From an uncultured Rivularia sp. (GTDB taxonomy: Bacteria; Cyanobacteriota; Cyanobacteriia; Cyanobacteriales; Nostocaceae): a DNA stretch of 64,000 bases. The stretch covers positions 3,552,001-3,616,000 of the forward strand of contig OY762007.1 in NCBI GenBank assembly GCA_963665115.1, read 5' to 3'. The translations under genes and the position numbers were made by a program. Below are positions 505 to 53,598 of the stretch, piece after piece; the first letter of the stretch is position 1, and every line of letters starts with the position of its first letter. The notes below the pieces were generated by a model. That model was not told the origin of the DNA. It saw nothing but the letters and a program-made list of their open reading frames with translations, and ran no database searches.

Positions 505-1608
505 ATGGGCAAATTAAATATTCTTATGCTGGGTGCTAGCCTGGAACAAAATGGAGGGATAGCAACTGTTGAAAAACTCATACTCCAACACGCTACTAAG
601 GATGTTGAGTTTCAGCATATAACCAGCCATGACGAAGGTACAATTCTTCATAGAATAAAGGTTTTCATCAAAGCTTTTGCCGTACTTTTATGGAATTTAG
701 TAAGTAGCAAATCCGATCTAATACACGTCCATATTTCAGACGGTGGTAGCTTGGTAAGAAAAGCAATCATTGTAATAATCGCTTTTCTTTTTAATAAACC
801 CGTATTGATACACGCACACGGGGCTGAATTTCAAGTAACTTACTCTAAACTTCCTAAACTAGCGCAGCTTTTTTTCAGTAAAATATTTCGTTGCTGCGAT
901 GATTTTATTGTTCTTTCCAAAACCTGGCAAGAATATTATATAAACAACTTAGGCTTAAACGAAAAACAAGTTGTTATTTTGCCGAATCCCACTGAATTAC
1001 CCGCTCAAATTCCCGATAGAACAAATACTTCATCTATTAAATTTGGCTTTTTTGGAAGAGTAGGTGCGCGTAAAGGAACATTTGATTTAATTAAAGCCTT
1101 CGCTCAAATTCCAGATACTTCAAAATCTGAATTAATTATCGCCGGAGATGGAGATATTGAAGAAGCGCGTAATTTAGCCAAAAGTCTCAACCTAGAAAAC
1201 AAAGTTCAATTTCTTGGTTGGATAGACTCTCAAACTAGAGATAAATTACTCGCTAATATCGACGTATTTGTTTTACCTTCTTACAACGAAGGTTTACCAA
1301 TGGCTCTTTTAGAAGCAATGGGTTGGGGCTTACCTGTTATAGTCACGCCAGTAGGTGGTATCCCTGAATTAATTACTTCCACAGAGAATGGTTTATTAGT
1401 GAATTCGGGAGATATCCAAAAGCTGTCTGAAGCAATGCAAGCATTGATTGAGAATGAGTCTTTAAGAATCTCTTTAGGAAACGCAGCCAGAGAAACTGTT
1501 ACTCCTTTCGATATCAAAGTTTATTCCTCTCAACTCCATCAAATTTATAACTCTGTATTGGAGTCTAGATCAAAAACTTCTCTTTCACCTGCTGGTGTGG
1601 GACAGTAA
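505..1608 (+). CDS. Glycosyltransferase family 4 (GT-B)
   Basis: HAHG motif, GRVGARKG, and DVFVLPSYNEGLPMALLEAM (E-x7-E) signature. Confidence 0.93.
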   Translation: MGKLNILMLGASLEQNGGIATVEKLILQHATKDVEFQHITSHDEGTILHRIKVFIKAFAVLLWNLVSSKSDLIHVHISDGGSLVRKAIIVIIAFLFNKPVLIHAHGAEFQVTYSKLPKLAQLFFSKIFRCCDDFIVLSKTWQEYYINNLGLNEKQVVILPNPTELPAQIPDRTNTSSIKFGFFGRVGARKGTFDLIKAFAQIPDTSKSELIIAGDGDIEEARNLAKSLNLENKVQFLGWIDSQTRDKLLANIDVFVLPSYNEGLPMALLEAMGWGLPVIVTPVGGIPELITSTENGLLVNSGDIQKLSEAMQALIENESLRISLGNAARETVTPFDIKVYSSQLHQIYNSVLESRSKTSLSPAGVGQ

Positions 1609-1836
1609 TTAAATTTTGGATTTTGCGGAAAGTTTAGCCTTCATAAGGTGCGCGGGATAAGCGCGTTGAGAGAACGTTGGGGTGTAGATGTTCTTCCCCC
1701 AAAACTTTCCTGCTCCAGATTTTGGATTTTGGATTAAATGTTTTATTTACCTAACACCCAAAGAAACCCGCGTTCTAAAACTAATGCAAGATATCGCATT
1801 AATAAACTCGCAAATTTATTAAATATCGGAGATTAA

Positions 1837-2598
1837 GTGATGAGAATAAATATCTGCGGAGTCAAAATTGACAATTACAGCTTTAATGATGCGGTAGAGC
1901 GCATTATAGATCGTGCTGTTACGGGAGTTATTCCTTCATATGTAGTAACTCCTAATGCACAACACGTTTTGAGTCTTCAGCGCGATGCTAATTTTCGCGA
2001 TATTTACGAAAAAGCTTTTCTAGCGGTACCTGATGGAGTTTCGTTGTTATGGTCTGCTAAATTCTTGCAAACACCCTTAAATGGTCGCGTAAATGGTACG
2101 GATTTGTTTGAAGAATTATCTGCTGTTGCCGAGCAAAAAGGACTGAAAATATTCTTACTGGGTGGTCGTTCTGGTGCTGCTGAAGAGGCTAAAAAAACTT
2201 TGCAAGCAAGACATTCCGACCTAAAAATAGTTGGAACTCACTGTCCACCCTATGGATTTGAATCTCAACCAGAAGAATTAGCGTTAATTAATTCCAAAAT
2301 TAAAGCAGCCGCACCAGATATTCTATTTGTAGGATTGGGCGCTCCCAAGCAGGAAAAATGGATATATGATAATTATCAAGAATTAGGAGTACCTGTTTCT
2401 TTAGGTATTGGAGTCAGTTTTGAATTAGTTGCCAATATGGTACAACGAGCGCCTTTATGGATGCAAAAATGGGGATTAGAATGGTTGTTCCGCTTGATTG
2501 TTGAACCAAAACGTTTATGGAAGCGTTACGTTATGGGAAATCCCCAGTTTATGTGGTTAGTACTCAAGCAACGACTTGGCTTTTACAAGCTTGCTTAG
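1837..2598 (+). CDS. WecB/TagA/CpsF family glycosyltransferase
   Basis: VVTPNAQH, PDGVS, RVNGTDL, FVGLGAPKQE, RAP..MQKWGLEWLFRL..EPKRLWKRY motifs. Confidence 0.93.
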   Translation: MMRINICGVKIDNYSFNDAVERIIDRAVTGVIPSYVVTPNAQHVLSLQRDANFRDIYEKAFLAVPDGVSLLWSAKFLQTPLNGRVNGTDLFEELSAVAEQKGLKIFLLGGRSGAAEEAKKTLQARHSDLKIVGTHCPPYGFESQPEELALINSKIKAAAPDILFVGLGAPKQEKWIYDNYQELGVPVSLGIGVSFELVANMVQRAPLWMQKWGLEWLFRLIVEPKRLWKRYVMGNPQFMWLVLKQRLGFYKLA

Positions 2599-2611
2599 GA
2601 ATTAATTATCT

Positions 2612-3788
2612 ATGTCTAAAAAAATGTTGACTAGACGAAAATTTTTATTTAGTCTAGGTGCTTTAACAACTATGGGTGCAGTGCTATTAGGTAAAGATGA
2701 GTTAAAACGTCAGCAAATTCTGGCTTTAGACGATCCAAATTGTGAATGCATCAAATATCCTGGTGATGAATCTTTAAGAGAAACGTGCTGCTAAGAAAAA
2801 TATTCTTTTTGGAACAGCCATACGCCATCCATTGCTTTTAACTGACAAAGAATATACCCAAAGCTTAATTAAAGAATGCTCAATATTGGTTTCAGAATGG
2901 GGATTTAAATGGCACGTCAACCCGAAAGCCTTACGTCCGACAGTCGAATCTTTTGACTTTACTGCCGCAGACAAAATGTTTAATTTTGCCCGCAGTCACG
3001 GTATGGAAGTTAGGGGACATACCTTAGTCTGGTATATCTCCTTGCCCCCTTGGTTTGAAAGTACAGTCAACCAACAAAATGCTAAACATTTTCTAGAAAA
3101 ACATATTCAAACCGTTGTCGGACGTTACCAAGGAGAAATGCATTCTTGGGATGTAGTCAATGAAGCTATCGAACCAAGAGACGGACATCCTGACGGTTTA
3201 AGAAAAACGCCGTGGTTGGAATTTTTAGGAGAAGATTATATAGATATTGCTTTTCGTTTAGCACATGAAGCAGATCCGAAAGCGATGTTGGTTTATAACG
3301 ATTATGGTTTAGTTTACGACGCACCGGAAGATGAAGCAAAACGAAACGCCGTAATTAAACTTTTAAAACGGTTAAAATCTCAAGGAACTCCCATTCATGC
3401 TTTAGGTGTTCAAGCTCATTTAGATGGCAGCGAAAGCAATTTTAATCCGAAGATATTAAAAGATTTTTTTGCTCAAGTTGCCGATATGGGTTTGAAAATC
3501 ATGATTACCGAACTCGACGTTAAAGACAAAGATTTACCAAGGAATGTACAAGTACGCGACAGAATAGTTGCTAAAGCCTACAGTGACTATCTAAAAGTTG
3601 CTTTGGAACAGCCAGCAGTTATTGCCGTTTTGACTTGGGGATTAAATGACCAACATAGTTGGCTGAATGAGTTTCAACCCCGAGATGACGGCGCACCTGT
3701 TCGTCCTCTACCGCTGGATATGGATGGCAAACGCAAATTTGCTTGGAATGCGATCGCGCGTGCTTTTGATGCAGCACCAAGTCGCTAA
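2612..3788 (+). pseudogene. Tat-exported GH10 endo-glycanase (xylanase family), split by a +1 frameshift near 2781 (probably a sequencing error)
   Basis: TRRKFL twin-arginine leader in 2612-2794; removing one A from GAGAAACG gives ESLRERAAKKNILFGTA, in frame with 2832-3788; GH10 motifs RGHTLVW, WDVVNE, YNDY, ITELDV. Confidence 0.88.
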
Positions 3789-4181
3789 ATTAAATTTGGC
3801 TTTGATTGCATTTCTTCAACACTTAAGGCGATCGCCAAGTAAGCTAATTAATGTTCTTATAGTATTTTTTTAATTATGATTATTTTAATTCTGTGATGCG
3901 AGTATTTTATCCGCCTTTTTTGTGAGTTAAAATATCATGATTAAATAGTAATATATCATGCAAATATCTTAGTATTCACTACTTATTACTTATTTTCGTT
4001 ATTGTCTGTTTTGCTACGAGAATACTTAAATCCTTTGTAGTTGATATTAAGTTATAAATATATTTATTTTATTACTGTAAAAAAATATTTTTATACGATT
4101 TTAAACAATTATCAGTGTCACAATGATGTCACATAATTTAATTATAGTTTAAGTAGAAATAACCAAGAAGTTATCAAAAAT

Positions 4182-5627
4182 ATGTCTTTTGTTAGTGAGT
4201 TATCAGGGAACAGCAACCTTCTCGATTTAAGGGCACCATCTTTAACACAATTACGCAAGAGAGTCGGTGCAATATGGCTTCGCATAATAACCCTTGTTGT
4301 AGTAGATGGAATAGGTTTGGGATTAGCCTGGAAGATGGCAGAAACCTACAGCAGAAAGTCTAATATTGAATGGGTTGAGCAAGACAATTTATTTTTTATT
4401 TTGTCAACTATCGTGATTCAAATTTGTCTGATTGCAACTCAAGGATTATACGAAGCTGGAGAAAAGCGGCGCGACTATTTTAACTTGAGCAAAACTATAA
4501 CATTCTCCTACTTTTTACTATTGCTTTTTGGATATCTGTATTTACAAAACGATTTCTTTCCTAGAGCAACCTTTATTACAGTATGGCTGTCGAGCATCGC
4601 CATTATTTGTTCGGGAAGATTTATGATGAATGCTGTTATTATGCGGCTTCGTAAACAAAACTTAATCACCTGCCCCACATATTTAATATGTTTGCCAGAA
4701 GATAAAAGTAAAGCAGTCAAGCTATTAGATAAAGAAAACTGTTACAATCTTGTAGGTTGGAAAAACGTTAATTCAATCTCTTCATCTAAAGGTCATTTAG
4801 CTGCCACCGTAGAAGAAATTATCCGTCAAGGAGTAGCAGAAGTATTTGTCTGTTCTTGGCAGTCTATAGAAAGTAGAATGTATCTTTACTGGAAGTTACG
4901 AAATGCTGGCGTTATCTTGCACATTTTGCCGATTGAACTACAGGCTATGGAGCAAAGATTGGAATTAAAAATGCTTGGTGGTATCCCAATCTTGAATTTT
5001 TTGCCACCAACTATTACTGGGAGTGATTTCCGGGTAAAACGGTACTTTGATTTTTGTAGTTCGGCACTGTTTATTTTATTTGCTTCACCAATTTATCTTT
5101 TGATTGCGTTACTAATCAAATTTGATTCTTCAGGCCCAATTTTTTACAAACAAACTCGCATTGGTTTGCATGGAAAACCCTTCAAAGTGTGGAAATTCCG
5201 CACAATGGTAACGAATGCAGATGAATTACAAAAACAGTTAGAAGCACGTAACGAAAATAAAGATGGAATTCTCTTTAAAATAAAAGACGATCCACGCATT
5301 ACCAAAGTAGGAAAGTTTCTCCGCCAGTATAGTTTGGATGAATTACCTCAATTATTTAACGTTCTTTTTAGAGAAATGAGTTTAGTTGGTCCTCGTCCTT
5401 TGCCTGTAAGAGATGTGGAGAAGTTTTCGAGCCACCACTTCATCCGTCAAGAAGTTCTCCCCGGAATTACAGGTTTATGGCAAATCTCCGGCCGCTCAGA
5501 TATTATTGATTTTGAGAAAGTGATTGACTTAGATAAAACCTACATGGAAAACTGGTCACTTTCATTGGATTTGCAGATTATTCTTCAAACAGTCAAAGTT
5601 ATTTTGGATAAAAAAGGAGCTTATTAA
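4182..5627 (+). CDS. Priming sugar transferase (WcaJ/WbaP-like polyprenyl-phosphate glycosylphosphotransferase)
   Basis: N-terminal TM helices; C-terminal KRYFD, KFRTM, DPRITKVGKFLR, SLDELPQL, PGITGLWQISGR. Confidence 0.93.
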   Translation: MSFVSELSGNSNLLDLRAPSLTQLRKRVGAIWLRIITLVVVDGIGLGLAWKMAETYSRKSNIEWVEQDNLFFILSTIVIQICLIATQGLYEAGEKRRDYFNLSKTITFSYFLLLLFGYLYLQNDFFPRATFITVWLSSIAIICSGRFMMNAVIMRLRKQNLITCPTYLICLPEDKSKAVKLLDKENCYNLVGWKNVNSISSSKGHLAATVEEIIRQGVAEVFVCSWQSIESRMYLYWKLRNAGVILHILPIELQAMEQRLELKMLGGIPILNFLPPTITGSDFRVKRYFDFCSSALFILFASPIYLLIALLIKFDSSGPIFYKQTRIGLHGKPFKVWKFRTMVTNADELQKQLEARNENKDGILFKIKDDPRITKVGKFLRQYSLDELPQLFNVLFREMSLVGPRPLPVRDVEKFSSHHFIRQEVLPGITGLWQISGRSDIIDFEKVIDLDKTYMENWSLSLDLQIILQTVKVILDKKGAY

Positions 5628-46594: not shown

Positions 46595-46827
46595 GGAACA
46601 GCAATCAGTTAGCAATTATCAATTTAAGAGTTTGCCCTCTAGTTGCCTATGTGACAGAGCTTTCGGATTTCGAGATGATATTCTGATAGGAAATTATTTA
46701 AAATAAGTATTAAAACTTGCATTTGTGCATAAGTTAAAATTGGAATTCACTATTCTAATATGGTAGCTAAATAATACTGCTATTCTGGAAACATTAAGCA
46801 GATTTAAACCTGTTGTCGCGAATCCGC

Positions 46828-47802
46828 ATGAACAAACGTGAAGAATTGCAAAAACTCGTCGATTTTCTAGAGGAGAAGATATTGCACTTACGGATGGCTA
46901 AGGTTACTGAAACCGATGCTTTAGCTATATTTAAAGCGGAAAAGCAGATTGAGGAAGCAGAAGCGGAACGGGATAGCATTAAACAAGAGATTGAAAATCA
47001 AAACACTTCAGCGAATAGTCGCAATTTATACAATGCTTTATTAAAACTTGGCTATCGCGAACAAGTACTGTTGTTCATAAAATTTCTCAAAAAACAATCC
47101 ATAGCAACATTTCTGCTCCACGGCTCACCAGATTATGGACAGCGTTGGTTACTGAATCGATTAATTACTCAACATATTCACCATGGTGCTACGGGTAAGT
47201 TGGTGCGAGTTCAACTCAACCGCATCGCACGCAGAAGCGATATTACTGCTTTATGGCGAGAATTAGGAGGTAGAGTGGGTTCAATTGGAACAAAACCTAC
47301 ACCCTCAGAGGTTGTTGAGCAAGTTTATAGGTGGTGGCAAACTCAAAATGTGATTTTGGTGTTTCACGATGTCGATTGTATGCCGCAGGAGTATTTACAG
47401 GAATTAATTCAGGAGTTTTGGCTACCATTGGCAAATCAAGCACGAAAGGTTGTTTCTGAATACCAGCTACTGATGTTTTTGGTAGATTATGAAGGTTTTA
47501 TTGGTACCCAGAACACCTTGTTTGTGGAAAAATTAGAACCTACTTGGGAACCGAAAATTCCGATTAAATTACCATCGATTACTCAATTTTGCGATCGCAC
47601 TTTAAATGAGTGGATTGAGACGGTAGAAATTGAATTTGATACCTTGCCTCTTATAGAAGCGATCAATAATACTGAAGATCAATTAGTCAAGGAAATATTA
47701 GACAATAGTGAAAATGGTGTTCCAGAACTAGCAATGTTAGAAATTTGTCACCTATGTGGCTGTAATTGGTATGAAGAGAAAGACAGATGGCTCAAACACT
47801 GA
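46828..47802 (+). CDS. Effector-associated-domain (EAD) + inactive STAND NTPase (iSTAND) component of a ternary conflict system
   Basis: N-terminal helical adaptor; degenerate P-loop LLHGSPDYGQRWLLNRL, VILVFHDV, LLMFLVD; overlaps the moxR start. Confidence 0.8.
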   Translation: MNKREELQKLVDFLEEKILHLRMAKVTETDALAIFKAEKQIEEAEAERDSIKQEIENQNTSANSRNLYNALLKLGYREQVLLFIKFLKKQSIATFLLHGSPDYGQRWLLNRLITQHIHHGATGKLVRVQLNRIARRSDITALWRELGGRVGSIGTKPTPSEVVEQVYRWWQTQNVILVFHDVDCMPQEYLQELIQEFWLPLANQARKVVSEYQLLMFLVDYEGFIGTQNTLFVEKLEPTWEPKIPIKLPSITQFCDRTLNEWIETVEIEFDTLPLIEAINNTEDQLVKEILDNSENGVPELAMLEICHLCGCNWYEEKDRWLKH

Positions 47803-48713
47803 GTAACAATCAACTTGAATATACAGGCAAAGTGCAGCCCCAGTGGGGTGAACGAGATGGCAACGGACAATTATTATATCCTTATTTACCTTATGAGGAA
47901 CTCGTAGAAGCTGTAAACTTGGCTATCTATTTAGAAAGACCACTTTTACTCAAAGGGGAACCCGGATGTGGTAAAACTCGTTTGGCTACTGCTGTGGCTT
48001 ATGAATTGGGTTTACCACTTGAGGCTTGGTATATCAAATCTACCACTCAAGCAAAAGATGGTTTGTATAACTATGATGCGGTGACTCGCTTGCGAGATGC
48101 CCAACTTGCTGCCGCAGGTAGAATAATTAAAGATGAGGATATTCCCCGGATTAGCGATTCCGCTACATACGTGAAATGGGGGCCATTAGGACGTGCTTTT
48201 CAGAACAGCCAGCGCACGGTGGTATTGATTGATGAAATTGATAAGGCTGACATTGACTTTCCGAATGATTTGTTATTGGAACTCGATCAACAAAAGTTTA
48301 TTGTTGATGAAACAGGAGAAGAAATTACAGCTAAGGCAGCACCAATAGTTTTTATTACCAGTAACGATGAAAAAGATTTACCAGATGCTTTTTTAAGAAG
48401 GTGTTTGTTTCACTACGTAGAATTTCCCACTCCCGAACGGTTAATAGAAATTATTAATTCTCATTTTCCCAATTCTCAGCAGCAGTTAGTAGCTAAAGCC
48501 GTAATTCGGTTTTTGAAGTTGCGGGATGAAATGGGGAAAGATAAGGGGGAAGCGGGGAAGAAGGTTAGTACCAGTGAATTAATTGATTGGTTTCGGGTTT
48601 TAAAACGGTATCCAGAAGACGAGGTTTTGAAGAAACTTGAAGGGAAATTACCTTATGCTGGGGTGTTGTTGAAGAGTTGGCAAGACCATGTACGGTATTT
48701 GAGGAAATCTTAA
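47787..48713 (+). CDS. MoxR family AAA+ ATPase
   Basis: Walker A GEPGCGKT, YDAVTRLRDAQ, Walker B VLIDEIDKADIDFPNDLL, ITSNDEKDLPDAFLRRC. Confidence 0.95.
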   Translation: MAQTLSNNQLEYTGKVQPQWGERDGNGQLLYPYLPYEELVEAVNLAIYLERPLLLKGEPGCGKTRLATAVAYELGLPLEAWYIKSTTQAKDGLYNYDAVTRLRDAQLAAAGRIIKDEDIPRISDSATYVKWGPLGRAFQNSQRTVVLIDEIDKADIDFPNDLLLELDQQKFIVDETGEEITAKAAPIVFITSNDEKDLPDAFLRRCLFHYVEFPTPERLIEIINSHFPNSQQQLVAKAVIRFLKLRDEMGKDKGEAGKKVSTSELIDWFRVLKRYPEDEVLKKLEGKLPYAGVLLKSWQDHVRYLRKS

Positions 48714-48799: not shown

Positions 48800-48874
48800 A
48801 ATATACATATTGTGTGTAATTTACCAGATGCCATATGAGTGGCTGTGGAAATTGGTGGAGGAAGTGTAAGAGTT

Positions 48875-50230
48875 ATGAACACAAACGAACTGCCCCTCCA
48901 AGAACTCTTCACCAAATTAAGGGAAGCAGGTTTACCGCTCGGGATTGATGAGTATCAGTTAGTTTTGCGATCTTTGCAAGCAGGGTTTGGTGTTGCTGAC
49001 AAAGCTGCTTTGAAACGTTTGTGTCAAACTTTATGGGCTAAATCTGCTGAGGAAAAGTCTATCTTGGATTATCACTTTGAACAAGTGATGGTTAACGATG
49101 CAGCTGGGGTTGCATCAGAAACAGATAATCAAACTATTAATAAATTTCGTATTGTTCCTCTGGTAATTTTGGGAATATTAGCAGGTGGAATTATTTTTGG
49201 TGTTAGAGTCAGCCACAAACCACGAACTACACAAACAATCTCAACACCAACCCCAATAGCAACGGCAACTCCGGAACCACAACCACCCCAACAACCAGCA
49301 ACCGAGCCAGATCTAGCGAACACACAGCCAGAACAACCAACTCAGCCGGTAGAACCTATTCCTCGCACAATGCAGCCAAATTTTGCGATTTGGATGATTC
49401 TATTCCTTACAGCTACAACTTGTGAATATTTAGTTTATCGCTGGATAACTCATTGGTTGTCTAAACGCAAGCCTAAACCAAATTCTTCTGCTTCTGCTCC
49501 ACCAGAAACCAGTAAAGATGAGGTACAAGTAGTAAAATCAGTATTGCAAGGTAGCAGTAAACATTGGAGTAGTGAATTCTTTCCTGTTACCCAACGGCAA
49601 ATGAAACAGATGTGGCGTTATTTACGCCGTCCTGTACGTGAGGGGAAAGCTACGGAGTTGGATGTGGAGGCAACGGTTAACCACATTGGACATGAGGGTA
49701 TGTTGCTCGAACCTGTGTTGATTCCACCCAGGGTAAACCGGGCAGAATTACTGTTACTAATTGACCAAGACGGTTCTATGGTACCTTTCCATGCTTTATC
49801 ACAAAGATTAGCAGAAACTGCCTTACGAGGAGGTCGTTTGGGCAGAACTGGTATTTATTACTTTCACAATTGCCCTGTTGAATATCTGTACCGCGATTCC
49901 TATCATCAGCAAGGGGAATTAGTCAGCTATATTCTTAATCATGTTTGCTCTGGACGCACGGCTGTGTTAATTTTTAGCGATGCTGGTGCTGCTCGCGGTG
50001 ACAATAGCCAGGAGCGTTACCAATTAACTCAAGAATTTCTTACCAATTTAAAACAACGGGTACGTTACATTGCTTGGCTCAATCCCCTGCCAAAAAACCG
50101 TTGGTTTGGCACTACAGCAGGTGAAATATCTAGCCTTGTCCCGATGTTTGAAGTCAGTCGAACGGGTTTGCAGGATGCTATTAGTATACTCAGCGGACGC
50201 TCTACAAATTTTGAGGGGCACAGGAAATGA
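48875..50230 (+). CDS. vWA-domain protein of a MoxR ternary system, with a two-TM / Pro-Gln-Thr insert
   Basis: LFTKLREAGLPLGIDEY N-terminus, ELDVEATV, MIDAS-like LIDQDGSM, IFSDAGAARG, WLNP. Confidence 0.88.
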   Translation: MNTNELPLQELFTKLREAGLPLGIDEYQLVLRSLQAGFGVADKAALKRLCQTLWAKSAEEKSILDYHFEQVMVNDAAGVASETDNQTINKFRIVPLVILGILAGGIIFGVRVSHKPRTTQTISTPTPIATATPEPQPPQQPATEPDLANTQPEQPTQPVEPIPRTMQPNFAIWMILFLTATTCEYLVYRWITHWLSKRKPKPNSSASAPPETSKDEVQVVKSVLQGSSKHWSSEFFPVTQRQMKQMWRYLRRPVREGKATELDVEATVNHIGHEGMLLEPVLIPPRVNRAELLLLIDQDGSMVPFHALSQRLAETALRGGRLGRTGIYYFHNCPVEYLYRDSYHQQGELVSYILNHVCSGRTAVLIFSDAGAARGDNSQERYQLTQEFLTNLKQRVRYIAWLNPLPKNRWFGTTAGEISSLVPMFEVSRTGLQDAISILSGRSTNFEGHRK

Positions 50231-51930
50231 GCAGAATCAAACCCGAAGTTGCCCAACGACGCATCAAATCTTTTACCAAGCGCTTTGGAGAAGCACATCT
50301 GTATTTGGCTTATCATGCTGCTTTTCCTTTAGCACTAACACCGGATTTGTTATATGGTTTGTGGATTAATTCCCAAAAAGATATCCACGGAGAAGTTTTG
50401 GATATTCCTTGGATAGCTGTAGCGGATTTGTTACTTTCTGGTTTGTGCGATGAAGTGGGACATGAACTTTATGAGATGGATTTAGCTGTACGAAATCAAT
50501 TGCTAAAGCAATTACACTCAGATGCACGCTTCGGCAAACAGCGAATCGATCAACTTTCAGATTTCTTGCTCAAATATGTCCACCATCAGCTTCAGAGTCA
50601 CGATCCAGATATTCGAGATTTTGCCAAAACTCAGCAGTGGATAGCTTTAGCATATACCCAACCCAGTCAAGCCGCTCGCGAACTAGCATTGGCATTCTCG
50701 CAATTAGATGAGCAGGATAAAGCGGAATTGCTGCGAATGGCTTCATTAACAGAAACATTTGCCGAACCATTGAGTGATTTTCAACCGCTATTAATTTACG
50801 CTCGCGGTATGGGTAAGTTTGCTCGCGGTGATTTGTCAGCGGCAAAAGCTGAGATTAGACAAGCTCTCAAAAAAAGCAACAACATACAGATTGCCGATAT
50901 CAATTTACCTATCCCCGAACCAATAAAGCCCCCCTTTTTAAGGGGGATATCTCGCAGACAACTTCTCAAATGGACTGGCTTTGGAGGAGTCGGTTTGGTG
51001 ACAGCATTAGTCACCCGCGAATTATCTCAAACTTTACAATTACAAACCTTTGATTTTGTAACCGTTACCGTAAATGCCCAAGGAAATATCATCAACCGTC
51101 GCAACGGTGAAGCGAAATATTTTGTGGAAGACTTAGGGAACAATCTACCTTTGGAAATGGTACGGATTCCGGGGGGAACTTTCAAAATGGGTTCCCCAGC
51201 AGATGAAGCCCAGAGAGTTGACAGTGAAAGCCCGCAGCATCAAGTTACGGTTCCAGAGTTTTTTATGGGAAAGTATGCAGTTACTCAAGCTCAGTATCAA
51301 GCAATTATGGGTGAAAATCCTTCAAGATTCAAAGGCGAAAATCGACCTGTGGAAACAGTATCTTGGAATCAAGCAGTGGAATTTTGCAAAAAGCTGAGCG
51401 AACAAACCGGACGTATTTATCGTTTACCCAGCGAAGCTGAATGGGAATATGCCTGTCGGGCTGGGACTACTACACCTTTCCATTTTGGTGAGACTATTAC
51501 GACTGAGTTAGTTAATTACAACGGGAATTATACATATGCTTCTGCACCAAAAGGTGAATATCGCCAACAAACAACAGATGTCGAAAGTTTTTTTCCTAAT
51601 TTGTTTGGTTTATATCAAATGCATGGTAATATATTGGAGTGGTGTTTAGACACCTGGCATGACAACTATCAAGATGCGCCCTCAGATGGCAGTGCTTGGA
51701 TCGGTAGCAATAAAGAGAACCGTTCTTTAAATTGGAAAGAACTTGAGCGGTTATATATTAATTTAGATAATAATGGTAATTTTCCGATGCTGCGCGGTGG
51801 TTCTTGGTTCTACGGTCCGAGGGGTTGCCGGTCGGCGTTTCGTTTAGGGGACGAGCCGGTCAACCGCGACGGCGACTCCGGGTTTCGGGTTGTGGTTTCG
51901 GGTGCGAGGACTCTTTTCTCTTCACTTTAG
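50227..51930 (+). CDS. Split-vWA partner domain + TM + FGE-sulfatase (FGS/CLec-fold) domain; candidate DGR target
   Basis: YHAAFPLALTPDLLY N-terminus; MVRIPGGTFKMGS, VTQAQY, RLPSEAEWEYACRAG, GLYQMHGN..EW, LRGGSW, GFRVV; ATGA overlap with the vWA gene. Confidence 0.9.
   Translation: MSRIKPEVAQRRIKSFTKRFGEAHLYLAYHAAFPLALTPDLLYGLWINSQKDIHGEVLDIPWIAVADLLLSGLCDEVGHELYEMDLAVRNQLLKQLHSDARFGKQRIDQLSDFLLKYVHHQLQSHDPDIRDFAKTQQWIALAYTQPSQAARELALAFSQLDEQDKAELLRMASLTETFAEPLSDFQPLLIYARGMGKFARGDLSAAKAEIRQALKKSNNIQIADINLPIPEPIKPPFLRGISRRQLLKWTGFGGVGLVTALVTRELSQTLQLQTFDFVTVTVNAQGNIINRRNGEAKYFVEDLGNNLPLEMVRIPGGTFKMGSPADEAQRVDSESPQHQVTVPEFFMGKYAVTQAQYQAIMGENPSRFKGENRPVETVSWNQAVEFCKKLSEQTGRIYRLPSEAEWEYACRAGTTTPFHFGETITTELVNYNGNYTYASAPKGEYRQQTTDVESFFPNLFGLYQMHGNILEWCLDTWHDNYQDAPSDGSAWIGSNKENRSLNWKELERLYINLDNNGNFPMLRGGSWFYGPRGCRSAFRLGDEPVNRDGDSGFRVVVSGARTLFSSL
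51787..51915 (+). other. Putative DGR variable region (VR)
   Basis: 78/120 G+C and 11/120 A over 51791-51910 (hand count), versus 14/60 G+C in 51721-51780; A-free scaffold codons with NNC/NNT codons at variable positions. Confidence 0.72.
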
Positions 51931-51970
51931 CCCTTTTGCACTTTTCACTCTTTTTTCTTTATCCTAATCC

Positions 51971-51983
51971 CCGCCGAAGGCGG
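51971..51983 (+). promoter_or_regulatory. CCGCC-GAA-GGCGG hairpin (DGR cis-acting stem-loop and/or terminator)
   Basis: Perfect 5-bp GC stem with GAA triloop ~40 nt after the stop codon, followed by a T-tract. Confidence 0.6.
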
Positions 51984-52119
51984 TAATTTTTTTAGGTATT
52001 TAATTTTTTAATTTTTAGTTAGTCTTAAATCTGGCATGACTTAGTATTTTTATTATTTCAGTAAGTCTGGTGTTTTGTAGACGCTACAATAAATCCATAA
52101 AACCTTCCCAGCCTTAACC

Positions 52120-52779
52120 ATGTCCCTCGCCAAAGAAGTAGAAACAACCCAATTGTGCCCAGAAGATGATATTTTTCCTATAGGCGATCTATACAGCGAC
52201 GAACCTCCCTTGGAAACTGAACTGCATCTAGAGCAAATAATGCTCTTAATTAAATGTCTAAAATGGTTGTGGCGAGACAGAAACGATTTTTACGCTGCGG
52301 GAAATTTAACAATTTATTATAGCCAGAATAAACGTAAAACCGAAGACTTCCGGGGACCAGATTTTTTTGTGGTGCGAGATACAGAACGCAAACTCCGTAA
52401 AAGCTGGGTAGTGTGGGAAGAAGATGGTAAATATCCCCATGTAATTGTAGAAATTCTTTCCGAATCAACAGCGAATACAGATAAAGAAGCAAAGAAAAAA
52501 CTTTACCAAAATACCTTCCGCACACCCGACTATTTTTGGTTCGATCCATATACTCTAGAATTCGCAGGATTTCATTTAGTAGATGGTGAATACGAACCAT
52601 TAGAACCTAACGAACAAGGACATTTGTGGAGTAAACAGTTAGGGCTGTATCTAGGTATTCATGAAGGGCTATTGCGATATTTTACTCAAGAAGGAAAATT
52701 GGTTCCCACACCAGAAGAACAAGCAGAAAAATTAGCTGCAAAGTTGCGAGAATTAAATATTGACCCTGATAGTATTTAG
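52120..52779 (+). CDS. Uma2 family endonuclease
   Basis: SDEPPLET.LH, FRGPDFFVV, RKSWVVWEE.GKYP.VIVEILSEST, YFWFDP. Confidence 0.92.
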   Translation: MSLAKEVETTQLCPEDDIFPIGDLYSDEPPLETELHLEQIMLLIKCLKWLWRDRNDFYAAGNLTIYYSQNKRKTEDFRGPDFFVVRDTERKLRKSWVVWEEDGKYPHVIVEILSESTANTDKEAKKKLYQNTFRTPDYFWFDPYTLEFAGFHLVDGEYEPLEPNEQGHLWSKQLGLYLGIHEGLLRYFTQEGKLVPTPEEQAEKLAAKLRELNIDPDSI

Positions 52780-52803: not shown

Positions 52804-53598
52804 ATGTTCCCACAACACCAATTTAACGAACTGCAAAACCTCTACGAATTACTAGAAGAGAAAATAATTCGCTTGCGAACAGCTAAAGCTATCGAAACAA
52901 GTGCAGCAGTTATTTTCCAATTAGAAAAGCAGATTCAAGAAGCCGAAGCGGAACGAGATAAAGTAGCTCAAGAAATTGCCCAATTCAATCAACAACAACC
53001 TACCTTTATTACAAGCAACAACAGTAATCAAACTGATATCAAAACAATTTTAATTCTCGCTGCAAATCCCAAAAATACCTCAAGATTGCGATTAGAAGAA
53101 GAAATCAGAGAAATTGATGAAGGGTTGCGACGGGCTAACAAGCGAGAGCAATTCAAACTAGAGATGAAATTAGCGGTGCGTCAACGAGACTTCTACCGAG
53201 CAATTTTAGATACTCAGCCCCAGATTGTTCATTTCTGCGGACATGGTGCGGGAGAAGATGGCATCATTTTGGAAGATGAAATGGGAATAACAGCTTTTGT
53301 ACAAGCAGATACTTTGGCGAGTTTGTTTAAGCTATTCGCCAACAAGGGAGTAGAGTGTGTTGTGCTAAACGCTTGTTATTCAGAAGTTCAAGCCAACGCT
53401 ATCAGCCAACATATTAACCATGTAATTGGGATGAATCGAGCAATTGGGGATAAAGCAGCGATTAATTTTGCCGTAGCTTTTTACGATGCTTTAGCTGCTG
53501 GGGAAGATGTAGAATTTGCTTTTGAGTTAGGTTGTTCTCAACTAGTTGGTTTAAAAGAAAATCAAACCCCTACACTTAGAATAAAAAATACGCAATAA
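52804..53598 (+). CDS. EAD + CHAT (caspase-like) peptidase
   Basis: ILILAANP..TSRLRLEEE, PQIVHFCGHG (His), VVLNACYS (Cys), AVAFYDAL; N-terminal 50 aa homologous to the iSTAND N-terminus. Confidence 0.9.
   Translation: MFPQHQFNELQNLYELLEEKIIRLRTAKAIETSAAVIFQLEKQIQEAEAERDKVAQEIAQFNQQQPTFITSNNSNQTDIKTILILAANPKNTSRLRLEEEIREIDEGLRRANKREQFKLEMKLAVRQRDFYRAILDTQPQIVHFCGHGAGEDGIILEDEMGITAFVQADTLASLFKLFANKGVECVVLNACYSEVQANAISQHINHVIGMNRAIGDKAAINFAVAFYDALAAGEDVEFAFELGCSQLVGLKENQTPTLRIKNTQ

Follow-up and report, generated by a model that had tools for sequence, protein, structure and literature searches.

The window, a 64,000-nt stretch of DNA (G000:C1:3552001-3616000), belongs to the genome of an uncultured Rivularia sp. 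(G000), which is available as a single contig of 8.69 Mb with 99.93% completeness and 37.9% GC content. Its right-hand part harbors an operon in which an iSTAND (inactive STAND NTPase), a MoxR-type AAA+ ATPase, and a CoxE-type vWA protein are encoded on three consecutive ORFs (PF19995, AAA_5, and PF05762), the gene set that defines iSTAND MoxR-vWA ternary systems. Matches under the cut-off link the ATPase to a MadB-family AAA (100 bits) and the vWA protein to the SAV_2336 N-terminal domain. An FGS domain is encoded on the next ORF, which overlaps the vWA stop codon and is not fused to vWA. The product is organized as an N-terminal domain of ~230 aa without a named family, followed by a C-terminal FGE-sulfatase/CLec domain, and homologs of this ORF display varied C-termini. 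The gene thus supplies the FGS/CLec part of a conflict-type operon of the iSTAND-MoxR-vWA kind. Its 3' end carries a variable region (VR) of a diversity-generating retroelement (DGR), discussed below together with the elements downstream (Table 1).

Table 1. Features of the operon, the DGR target gene, and the adjoining sequence (window coordinates)
Feature	Coordinates	Strand	Basis or remark
iSTAND gene, first of the ternary-system operon	46813..47802	+	PF19995, E=2.6e-31
MoxR-type AAA+ ATPase gene	47787..48713	+	AAA_5, E=1.7e-13; 'MoxR' label taken from context
vWA (CoxE-like) gene	48839..50230	+	PF05762, E=1.8e-12; stop overlaps target-gene start
DGR target gene, 567 aa	50227..51930	+	PF03781 at residues 310-556, E=2e-50; frame intact
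VR, homologous without gaps to the G018/G009 template repeat	51787..51915	+	Adenine-biased template match, codon view; rewritten codons 51808-51879 (residues 528-551)
Putative IMH	51903..51915	+	VR and template differ at two non-A bases (51909-51910) at the repeat 3' end
Pyrimidine tract	~51911..51969	+	Similar tract after relatives' DGR target genes, not after their template repeats
GC hairpin CCGCC-GAA-GGCGG, then T run	51971..51983	+	
Putative deletion junction	52079..52082	.	G018 has Avd, RT, template repeat, and spacer between matches to 52078 and 52082
Uma2-family gene, right-hand synteny anchor	52120..52779	+	PF05685; follows the template-spacer segment in G018 and G009
CHAT-domain gene	52804..53598	+	PF12770; cross-matches; N-terminal ~50 aa resemble the iSTAND N-terminus

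The locus shares the iSTAND, the MoxR-type ATPase, the CoxE-type vWA protein, and FGS with the ternary systems of Kaur et al. 2020 (PMC7159879), as well as a variable C-terminal effector among homologs. In that work, FGS is the commonest effector of these systems (~22%), anti-invader activity is predicted for them, and a DGR link is described for the sister VMAP systems. The effector described there is fused to vWA, whereas the window FGS occupies a separate ORF behind the unnamed 230-aa domain and its DGR is apparently gone. For this N-terminal domain (window 50227-50916), no Pfam family was matched and an Atlas search gave unnamed clusters only; matches occur in 74 of 150 family genomes, with homologs fusing varied C-terminal domains. 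A similar N-terminal segment of ~50 aa opens both the iSTAND gene (46813-46993) and the CHAT gene (52804-52978), possibly representing an effector-associated adaptor domain.

The fold predicted for the target is an FGE-type CLec. It is shared with TvpA from Treponema denticola (PDB 2y3c), a lipoprotein, which gave a profile match at E=2e-38 and ranked among the top Foldseek matches (E=7e-10, rmsd 3.1). The AlphaFold model of the target has a mean pLDDT of 68.8, with values below 50 at model residues 261-273, a part of the VR; this portion of the model is too weak for a binding pocket to be mapped. According to PMC6602519, TvpA is one target of a DGR that has remote targets, and the host genome has retained the reverse transcriptase (RT), whereas searches of the window genome assembly gave no DGR RT. 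An insertion of ~20 aa just before the VR (window ~51705-51780) is common to the orthologs of G018 and G015 and absent from the other 20 alignment rows.

An initial annotation of the window had proposed a DGR variable region at the 3' end of this gene on compositional grounds, and most of its observations were reproduced. Recounting 51791-51910 gives 78/120 G+C and 11/120 A, as quoted, and a composition as extreme is found in only 1.6e-5 (+ strand) and 2.2e-5 (- strand) of the 120-nt windows of the genome. The 14/60 G+C quoted for the upstream side applies to windows starting at 51722, 51725, and 51726, but the segment directly upstream (51731-51790) has 17/60, a trivial shift. The scaffold and variable codons were quoted correctly and fall within the 3' end of ORF 50227-51930, and the pyrimidine tract and the GC hairpin are likewise present.

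The VR was compared with the template repeats (TRs) of relatives. Against the TR of the orthologous locus in G018, aligned without gaps, 23 of 33 template adenines differ in the VR versus 9 of 96 non-A positions (Fisher p=6e-11); the TR of G009 yields 21/31 A versus 10/98 non-A. Both are relatives' templates and not from the window genome, whose own lost TR is invisible, and several of the non-A differences could reflect TR divergence or later drift. Among the nine found against G018, two are IMH-type and one falls in the first, flanking column. As background, the FGE core that precedes the VR differs between these two genes (window and G018) at 25/181 A and 64/379 non-A positions. The template start that the initial annotation had predicted from the window agrees with the G018/G009 TR at all but 1 of 30 bases. 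Template AAC/AAT codons correspond in the window to TTC, TAC, GGT, GGT, TTT, TTA, GAC, AAC, GAC, GGC, and GAC.

The match is also specific to this locus. TR comparisons relied on one set of 11 and one of 16 TRs, partly overlapping; among the 16, the VR fits well only the two from its own locus, with 8-9 non-A mismatches versus 17-26 for the other 14. The other seven FGE 3' ends of G000 that were tested each have 21 or more non-A mismatches when aligned over the full length. At the codon level, dN/dS is ~1.5 in the VR versus 0.12-0.18 in the rest of the gene when compared with two orthologs, and the low value outside the VR mostly reflects the time before cassette loss.

A different origin of this segment, as an ordinary GC-rich C-terminus followed by a plain intrinsic terminator, draws on properties of the hairpin, which passes a terminator scan, has a weak folding energy that is not significant alone (z -1.5 to -1.9), and fails the MyDGR rule (7-10-bp stem, GRNA loop, 4-34-bp distance). 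The divergence from a bona fide TR is nonetheless specific to adenines, and the upstream core of the gene shows no such bias. This alignment refutes a non-DGR origin, to which we assign an almost negligible probability. At the level of sequence comparison, 51787-51915 is a genuine DGR variable region, and the initial annotation was right to locate it in an FGE/CLec domain and to note the hairpin behind it.

The IMH/IMH* concept derives from PMC6602519, and intact VR/TR pairs of relatives display non-A differences at the repeat 3' end of the type seen at 51909-51910. The 13-mer that forms the hairpin occurs once in the G000 genome. A similar tract and hairpin lie 3' of the target in all five loci with full-length RT and Avd (four by pattern, one by eye); by pattern, the combination is present in 13 of 30 FGE rows overall and in 0 of 9 TR rows. 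The hairpin is likely a target-recognition element and/or an intrinsic terminator, with a likely role in targeting, and it may act in termination, perhaps as a second role.

Elsewhere in G000, a second orphan VR was observed at G000:C1:7259159-7259365 (- strand; L009/L022), in an FGE gene of 668 aa whose N-terminus looks kinase-like by eye. It is followed by a tract and a CCGCC-GTTA-GGCGG hairpin, with no cassette downstream. Its best fit is to a different TR family, represented in G002:C1 (20/34 A and 10/91 non-A differing, with a 3-nt gap).

A DNA search of 60 relatives located the cognate cassette in G018, a genome of the same genus (G018:C326, L054). The gene order there is vWA, the orthologous FGE, Avd (PF22296, 67 bits), RT, TR, spacer, and Uma2, the RT being split by an IS605-type transposase gene. 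The window aligns to this region over 50225-52078 (82%) and resumes at 52082 (89%), so that 3588 nt present in G018, including the IS605-type insertion, are absent at the window junction. Contigs from three of four runs (X1-X3) skip G018 positions 729-4498 at full depth; the gap is hence not peculiar to the window assembly, with the reservation that these contigs come from one study, which may be the source of the assembly. In X1-X3 and X6, the G018 Avd, RT, and TR received no full-depth cover beyond short repeat matches and the TR was represented by pieces at only 2.7-2.9x; this lack of cover was given no evidential weight. The DGR of G018 is itself broken (L054 1077-4783), having an interrupted RT and a premature stop codon inside the target VR. 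At the window junction, a short perfect inverted repeat with 6-bp arms and a 3-nt loop was seen by eye (52070-52084).

The remainder of the machinery was sought throughout G000. The initial annotation had reported no RT, Avd, or TR in the window, and this absence extends to the whole assembly in searches above cut-offs. No TR was recovered by blastn of the whole genome at word size 7, by an ungapped scan of both strands in which mismatches at subject adenines were forgiven, or by blastn with the G018 cassette; the TR motif has no occurrence in G000 and is present in 9 of 26 same-genus genomes. A non-coding near-copy beside an RT, which the initial annotation expected from whole-genome blastn, was not found in G000. 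FGE coding ends were the only matches across the TR searches, apart from one 55-nt spacer-like scrap among the significant matches of an nhmmer profile built from 18 TR-plus-spacer sequences. This scrap is intergenic (G000:C1:1277465-1277519, - strand) and matches the 3' end of the spacer profile (E=3e-7); no TR, RT, or FGE gene was seen within 7 kb of it.

Seven RVT_1 matches exist in G000, none exceeding 28% identity to the DGR RTs of relatives in full-length alignments. A DGR RT query at E<=1e-30 matched nothing in G000 and matched 7 of 26 same-genus genomes, whose DGR RTs share 60-88% identity with the query (100% being the query's own genome). Each of the seven was rejected as a DGR RT. 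L001 scores over the NCBIfam cut-off as a group II RT/maturase. L003 (G000:C1:1706851-1710471) is group-II-like by NCBIfam and encodes a stand-alone 320-aa RT beside a gene that we take to be cas1(-like). L006 (G000:C1:4968071-4971637) is retron-like, below the NCBIfam cut-off, and is preceded by what is presumably a small HTH-like gene. For L002, L004, L005, and L007, frame length and a tblastn identity of 22-28% were the sole grounds. No Avd was detected over the cut-off in G000; a four-helix-bundle match at G000:C1:274392 scored 28/40 and 32/80 bits, below both cut-offs, and the 3.3-kb locus around it contains no RT or FGE gene.

With the cassette missing downstream and not found elsewhere in the genome, the VR is likely a frozen relic, and we regard its frozen state as highly probable. 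The initial annotation had instead favored hypermutation in trans by a remote DGR. Such an RT, Avd, and TR, carried for instance by a plasmid or prophage missing from the assembly, would still mutate the VR, whose IMH-type end, tract, and hairpin are intact and whose frame is open; remote targets are moreover documented in cyanobacteria (PMC7517822), and an assembly of a single contig that lacks such a replicon keeps this a formal, if small, possibility. The evidence largely opposes it. The G000 assembly yielded no DGR RT, Avd, or TR, while relatives carry the matching TR in cis, at precisely the site that is deleted in the window, and two hidden DGRs would be needed, since the second VR of the genome fits a different TR family. 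The initial annotation had also tied its proposal to a TR and RT in this genome or its relatives; neither turned up in G000, and the relatives carry both, in cis behind the orthologous gene. We thus consider continued mutation in trans very unlikely. Over the VR, the X1-X3 contigs are identical to the window (0 differences) and no variant VR contig was present, in contigs that drop rare variants.

The frozen-relic reading gains a historical dimension from the genomes of relatives. In G009, most of the target, Avd, and RT have been lost, and the TR and spacer are kept. In G025, the VR, hairpin, and spacer survive, and Avd-RT-TR has disappeared at a short shared motif. G008 retains just the VR end and hairpin, and G013 just the last bases of the TR and the spacer; G015 presents an IS gene and then the contig end. 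A complete iSTAND-MoxR-vWA-FGE-hairpin-Avd-RT-TR array is found in G134, a member of another genus, as one of 20 family-level homolog regions. It encodes a 352-aa RT and an Avd over the cut-off, and its VR and TR differ at 18/32 A versus 1/92 non-A positions. In three of the 20 family-level regions, a TR lies close behind the target, leaving no room for an RT. The differing breakpoints of G009, G025, G008, and G013, combined with the intact array of G134, favor an ancestral cassette with repeated loss, the genomes that set this polarity being kin and not independent samples. In-place deletion of the cassette is the probable route to the frozen VR of the window.

The module as a whole is also unevenly distributed. 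In 11 of 20 same-genus regions, the two flanks occur with no detected part of the module, which thus behaves as an accessory island. Among the seven same-genus loci with VR/TR traces, the target appears open in three (the window, G015, and G025, the last across two overlapping contigs) and is truncated or deleted in four (G018, G009, G008, and G013). This tally does not establish selection for retention of the target. A strict target-plus-hairpin pattern occurs in 9 of 27 genomes of the genus. Six of these nine have no DGR RT match, and surveys anchored on the RT therefore likely undercount DGR history.

The sister genome G007 introduces a complication. Identity between the window and G007 is 96-98% across iSTAND/CHAT/TPM and 95% for Uma2, as opposed to 86/85/81% for vWA-3'/FGE-N/FGE-C, and G007 (L124, G007:C1 7485-9700) carries a divergent, frameshifted vWA-3'/FGE allele without a VR signature or hairpin. 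This mismatch between flank and module identity indicates that the module recombines between species, and the window could accordingly have imported an already orphaned copy. Under such a scenario, a vWA-3'/FGE/VR/hairpin block would have been diversified in another lineage and recombined in without its cassette, making 52079-52082 an import junction. The mosaic with G007 agrees with this, as do the trees, in which the window groups with G025 for vWA-3' (0.99) and FGE-N (0.98) and with G007 for the flanks. However, the identity between the window and G025 is about the same in the module (86-90%) as in the flanks (88%), and a recent transfer is therefore not evident. Furthermore, the FGE core of G007 is nearer to that of G011 (91%) than the flanks of these two genomes are (85-90%), which suggests that G007 may have been the recipient of an exchanged module. 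Import into the window is in our judgment unlikely, and in-place deletion remains the preferred route.

Parallels exist among described DGRs. The cyanobacterial DGRs described by Vallota-Eastman et al. 2020 (PMC7517822), which have CLec/FGE-sulfatase targets, share with the window a C-terminal CLec VR at the gene 3' end, the VWA-CoxE context, and IS200/IS605 elements near the loci. That study describes all3226, a target that retains traces of TR-VR homology and has no RT nearby, as well as a degraded cassette in Anabaena sp. 90, and suggests that the machinery is removed after selection of a variant. The genome of all3226 retains two DGRs, in contrast to the window genome, where no DGR RT or TR was found; unlike in all3226, an orthologous locus here places the deletion junction to within ~4 nt. 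Clade 5 DGRs of multicellular bacteria (bioRxiv 10.1101/2023.09.22.558884) offer a comparable MoxR/vWA context. According to that preprint, the clade 5E RTs of cyanobacteria are for the most part linked to MoxR and vWA, a sensor role is proposed for the CLec target, and RT-deleted strains are described at Thiohalocapsa DGR7. Those clade 5 loci were shown to diversify in nature, whereas the window locus has no machinery and showed no variation in assembled contigs. DGR loss in culture has been suggested as well (PMC3575424). Since searches of its genome gave no TR, RT, or Avd, the window locus qualifies neither as a complete DGR nor as a remote target.

A plausible history can be outlined from these data. 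In an ancestor, RT-Avd would have reverse-transcribed the TR RNA, making errors at adenines; with the IMH, tract, and hairpin as guides, this cDNA would have taken the place of the VR and rewritten residues 528-551. The Avd-RT-TR machinery would then have been removed by a deletion that left the last variant fixed. The product would now be a predicted ligand-binding sensor/effector of an iSTAND-MoxR-vWA conflict system with one fixed specificity, a sensor role that rests on published bioinformatic predictions.

No new mechanism is revealed by this locus, and orphaned DGR targets have already been described. The locus carries an orphaned, probably frozen VR beside an unusually clear, probable deletion scar. 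It illustrates that VR-plus-hairpin signatures can outlast the DGR machinery, and its interpretation changes: a frozen relic replaces the remotely hypermutated, active target first proposed. Its intact cis elements, together with a known cognate TR, provide a ready substrate for testing target recognition by cyanobacterial DGRs. A broader scheme can be formulated as 'diversify, discard, exchange', in which a DGR writes the binding tip of a conflict-system sensor, the machinery is shed repeatedly and with varying breakpoints, and finished vWA-FGE modules move between species through recombination. We advance it tentatively and consider it doubtful at present. If it were true, the window allele would be a selected, fixed receptor, and the frozen specificities across the genus would form a natural panel with which the ligand of cyanobacterial DGR targets could be sought.
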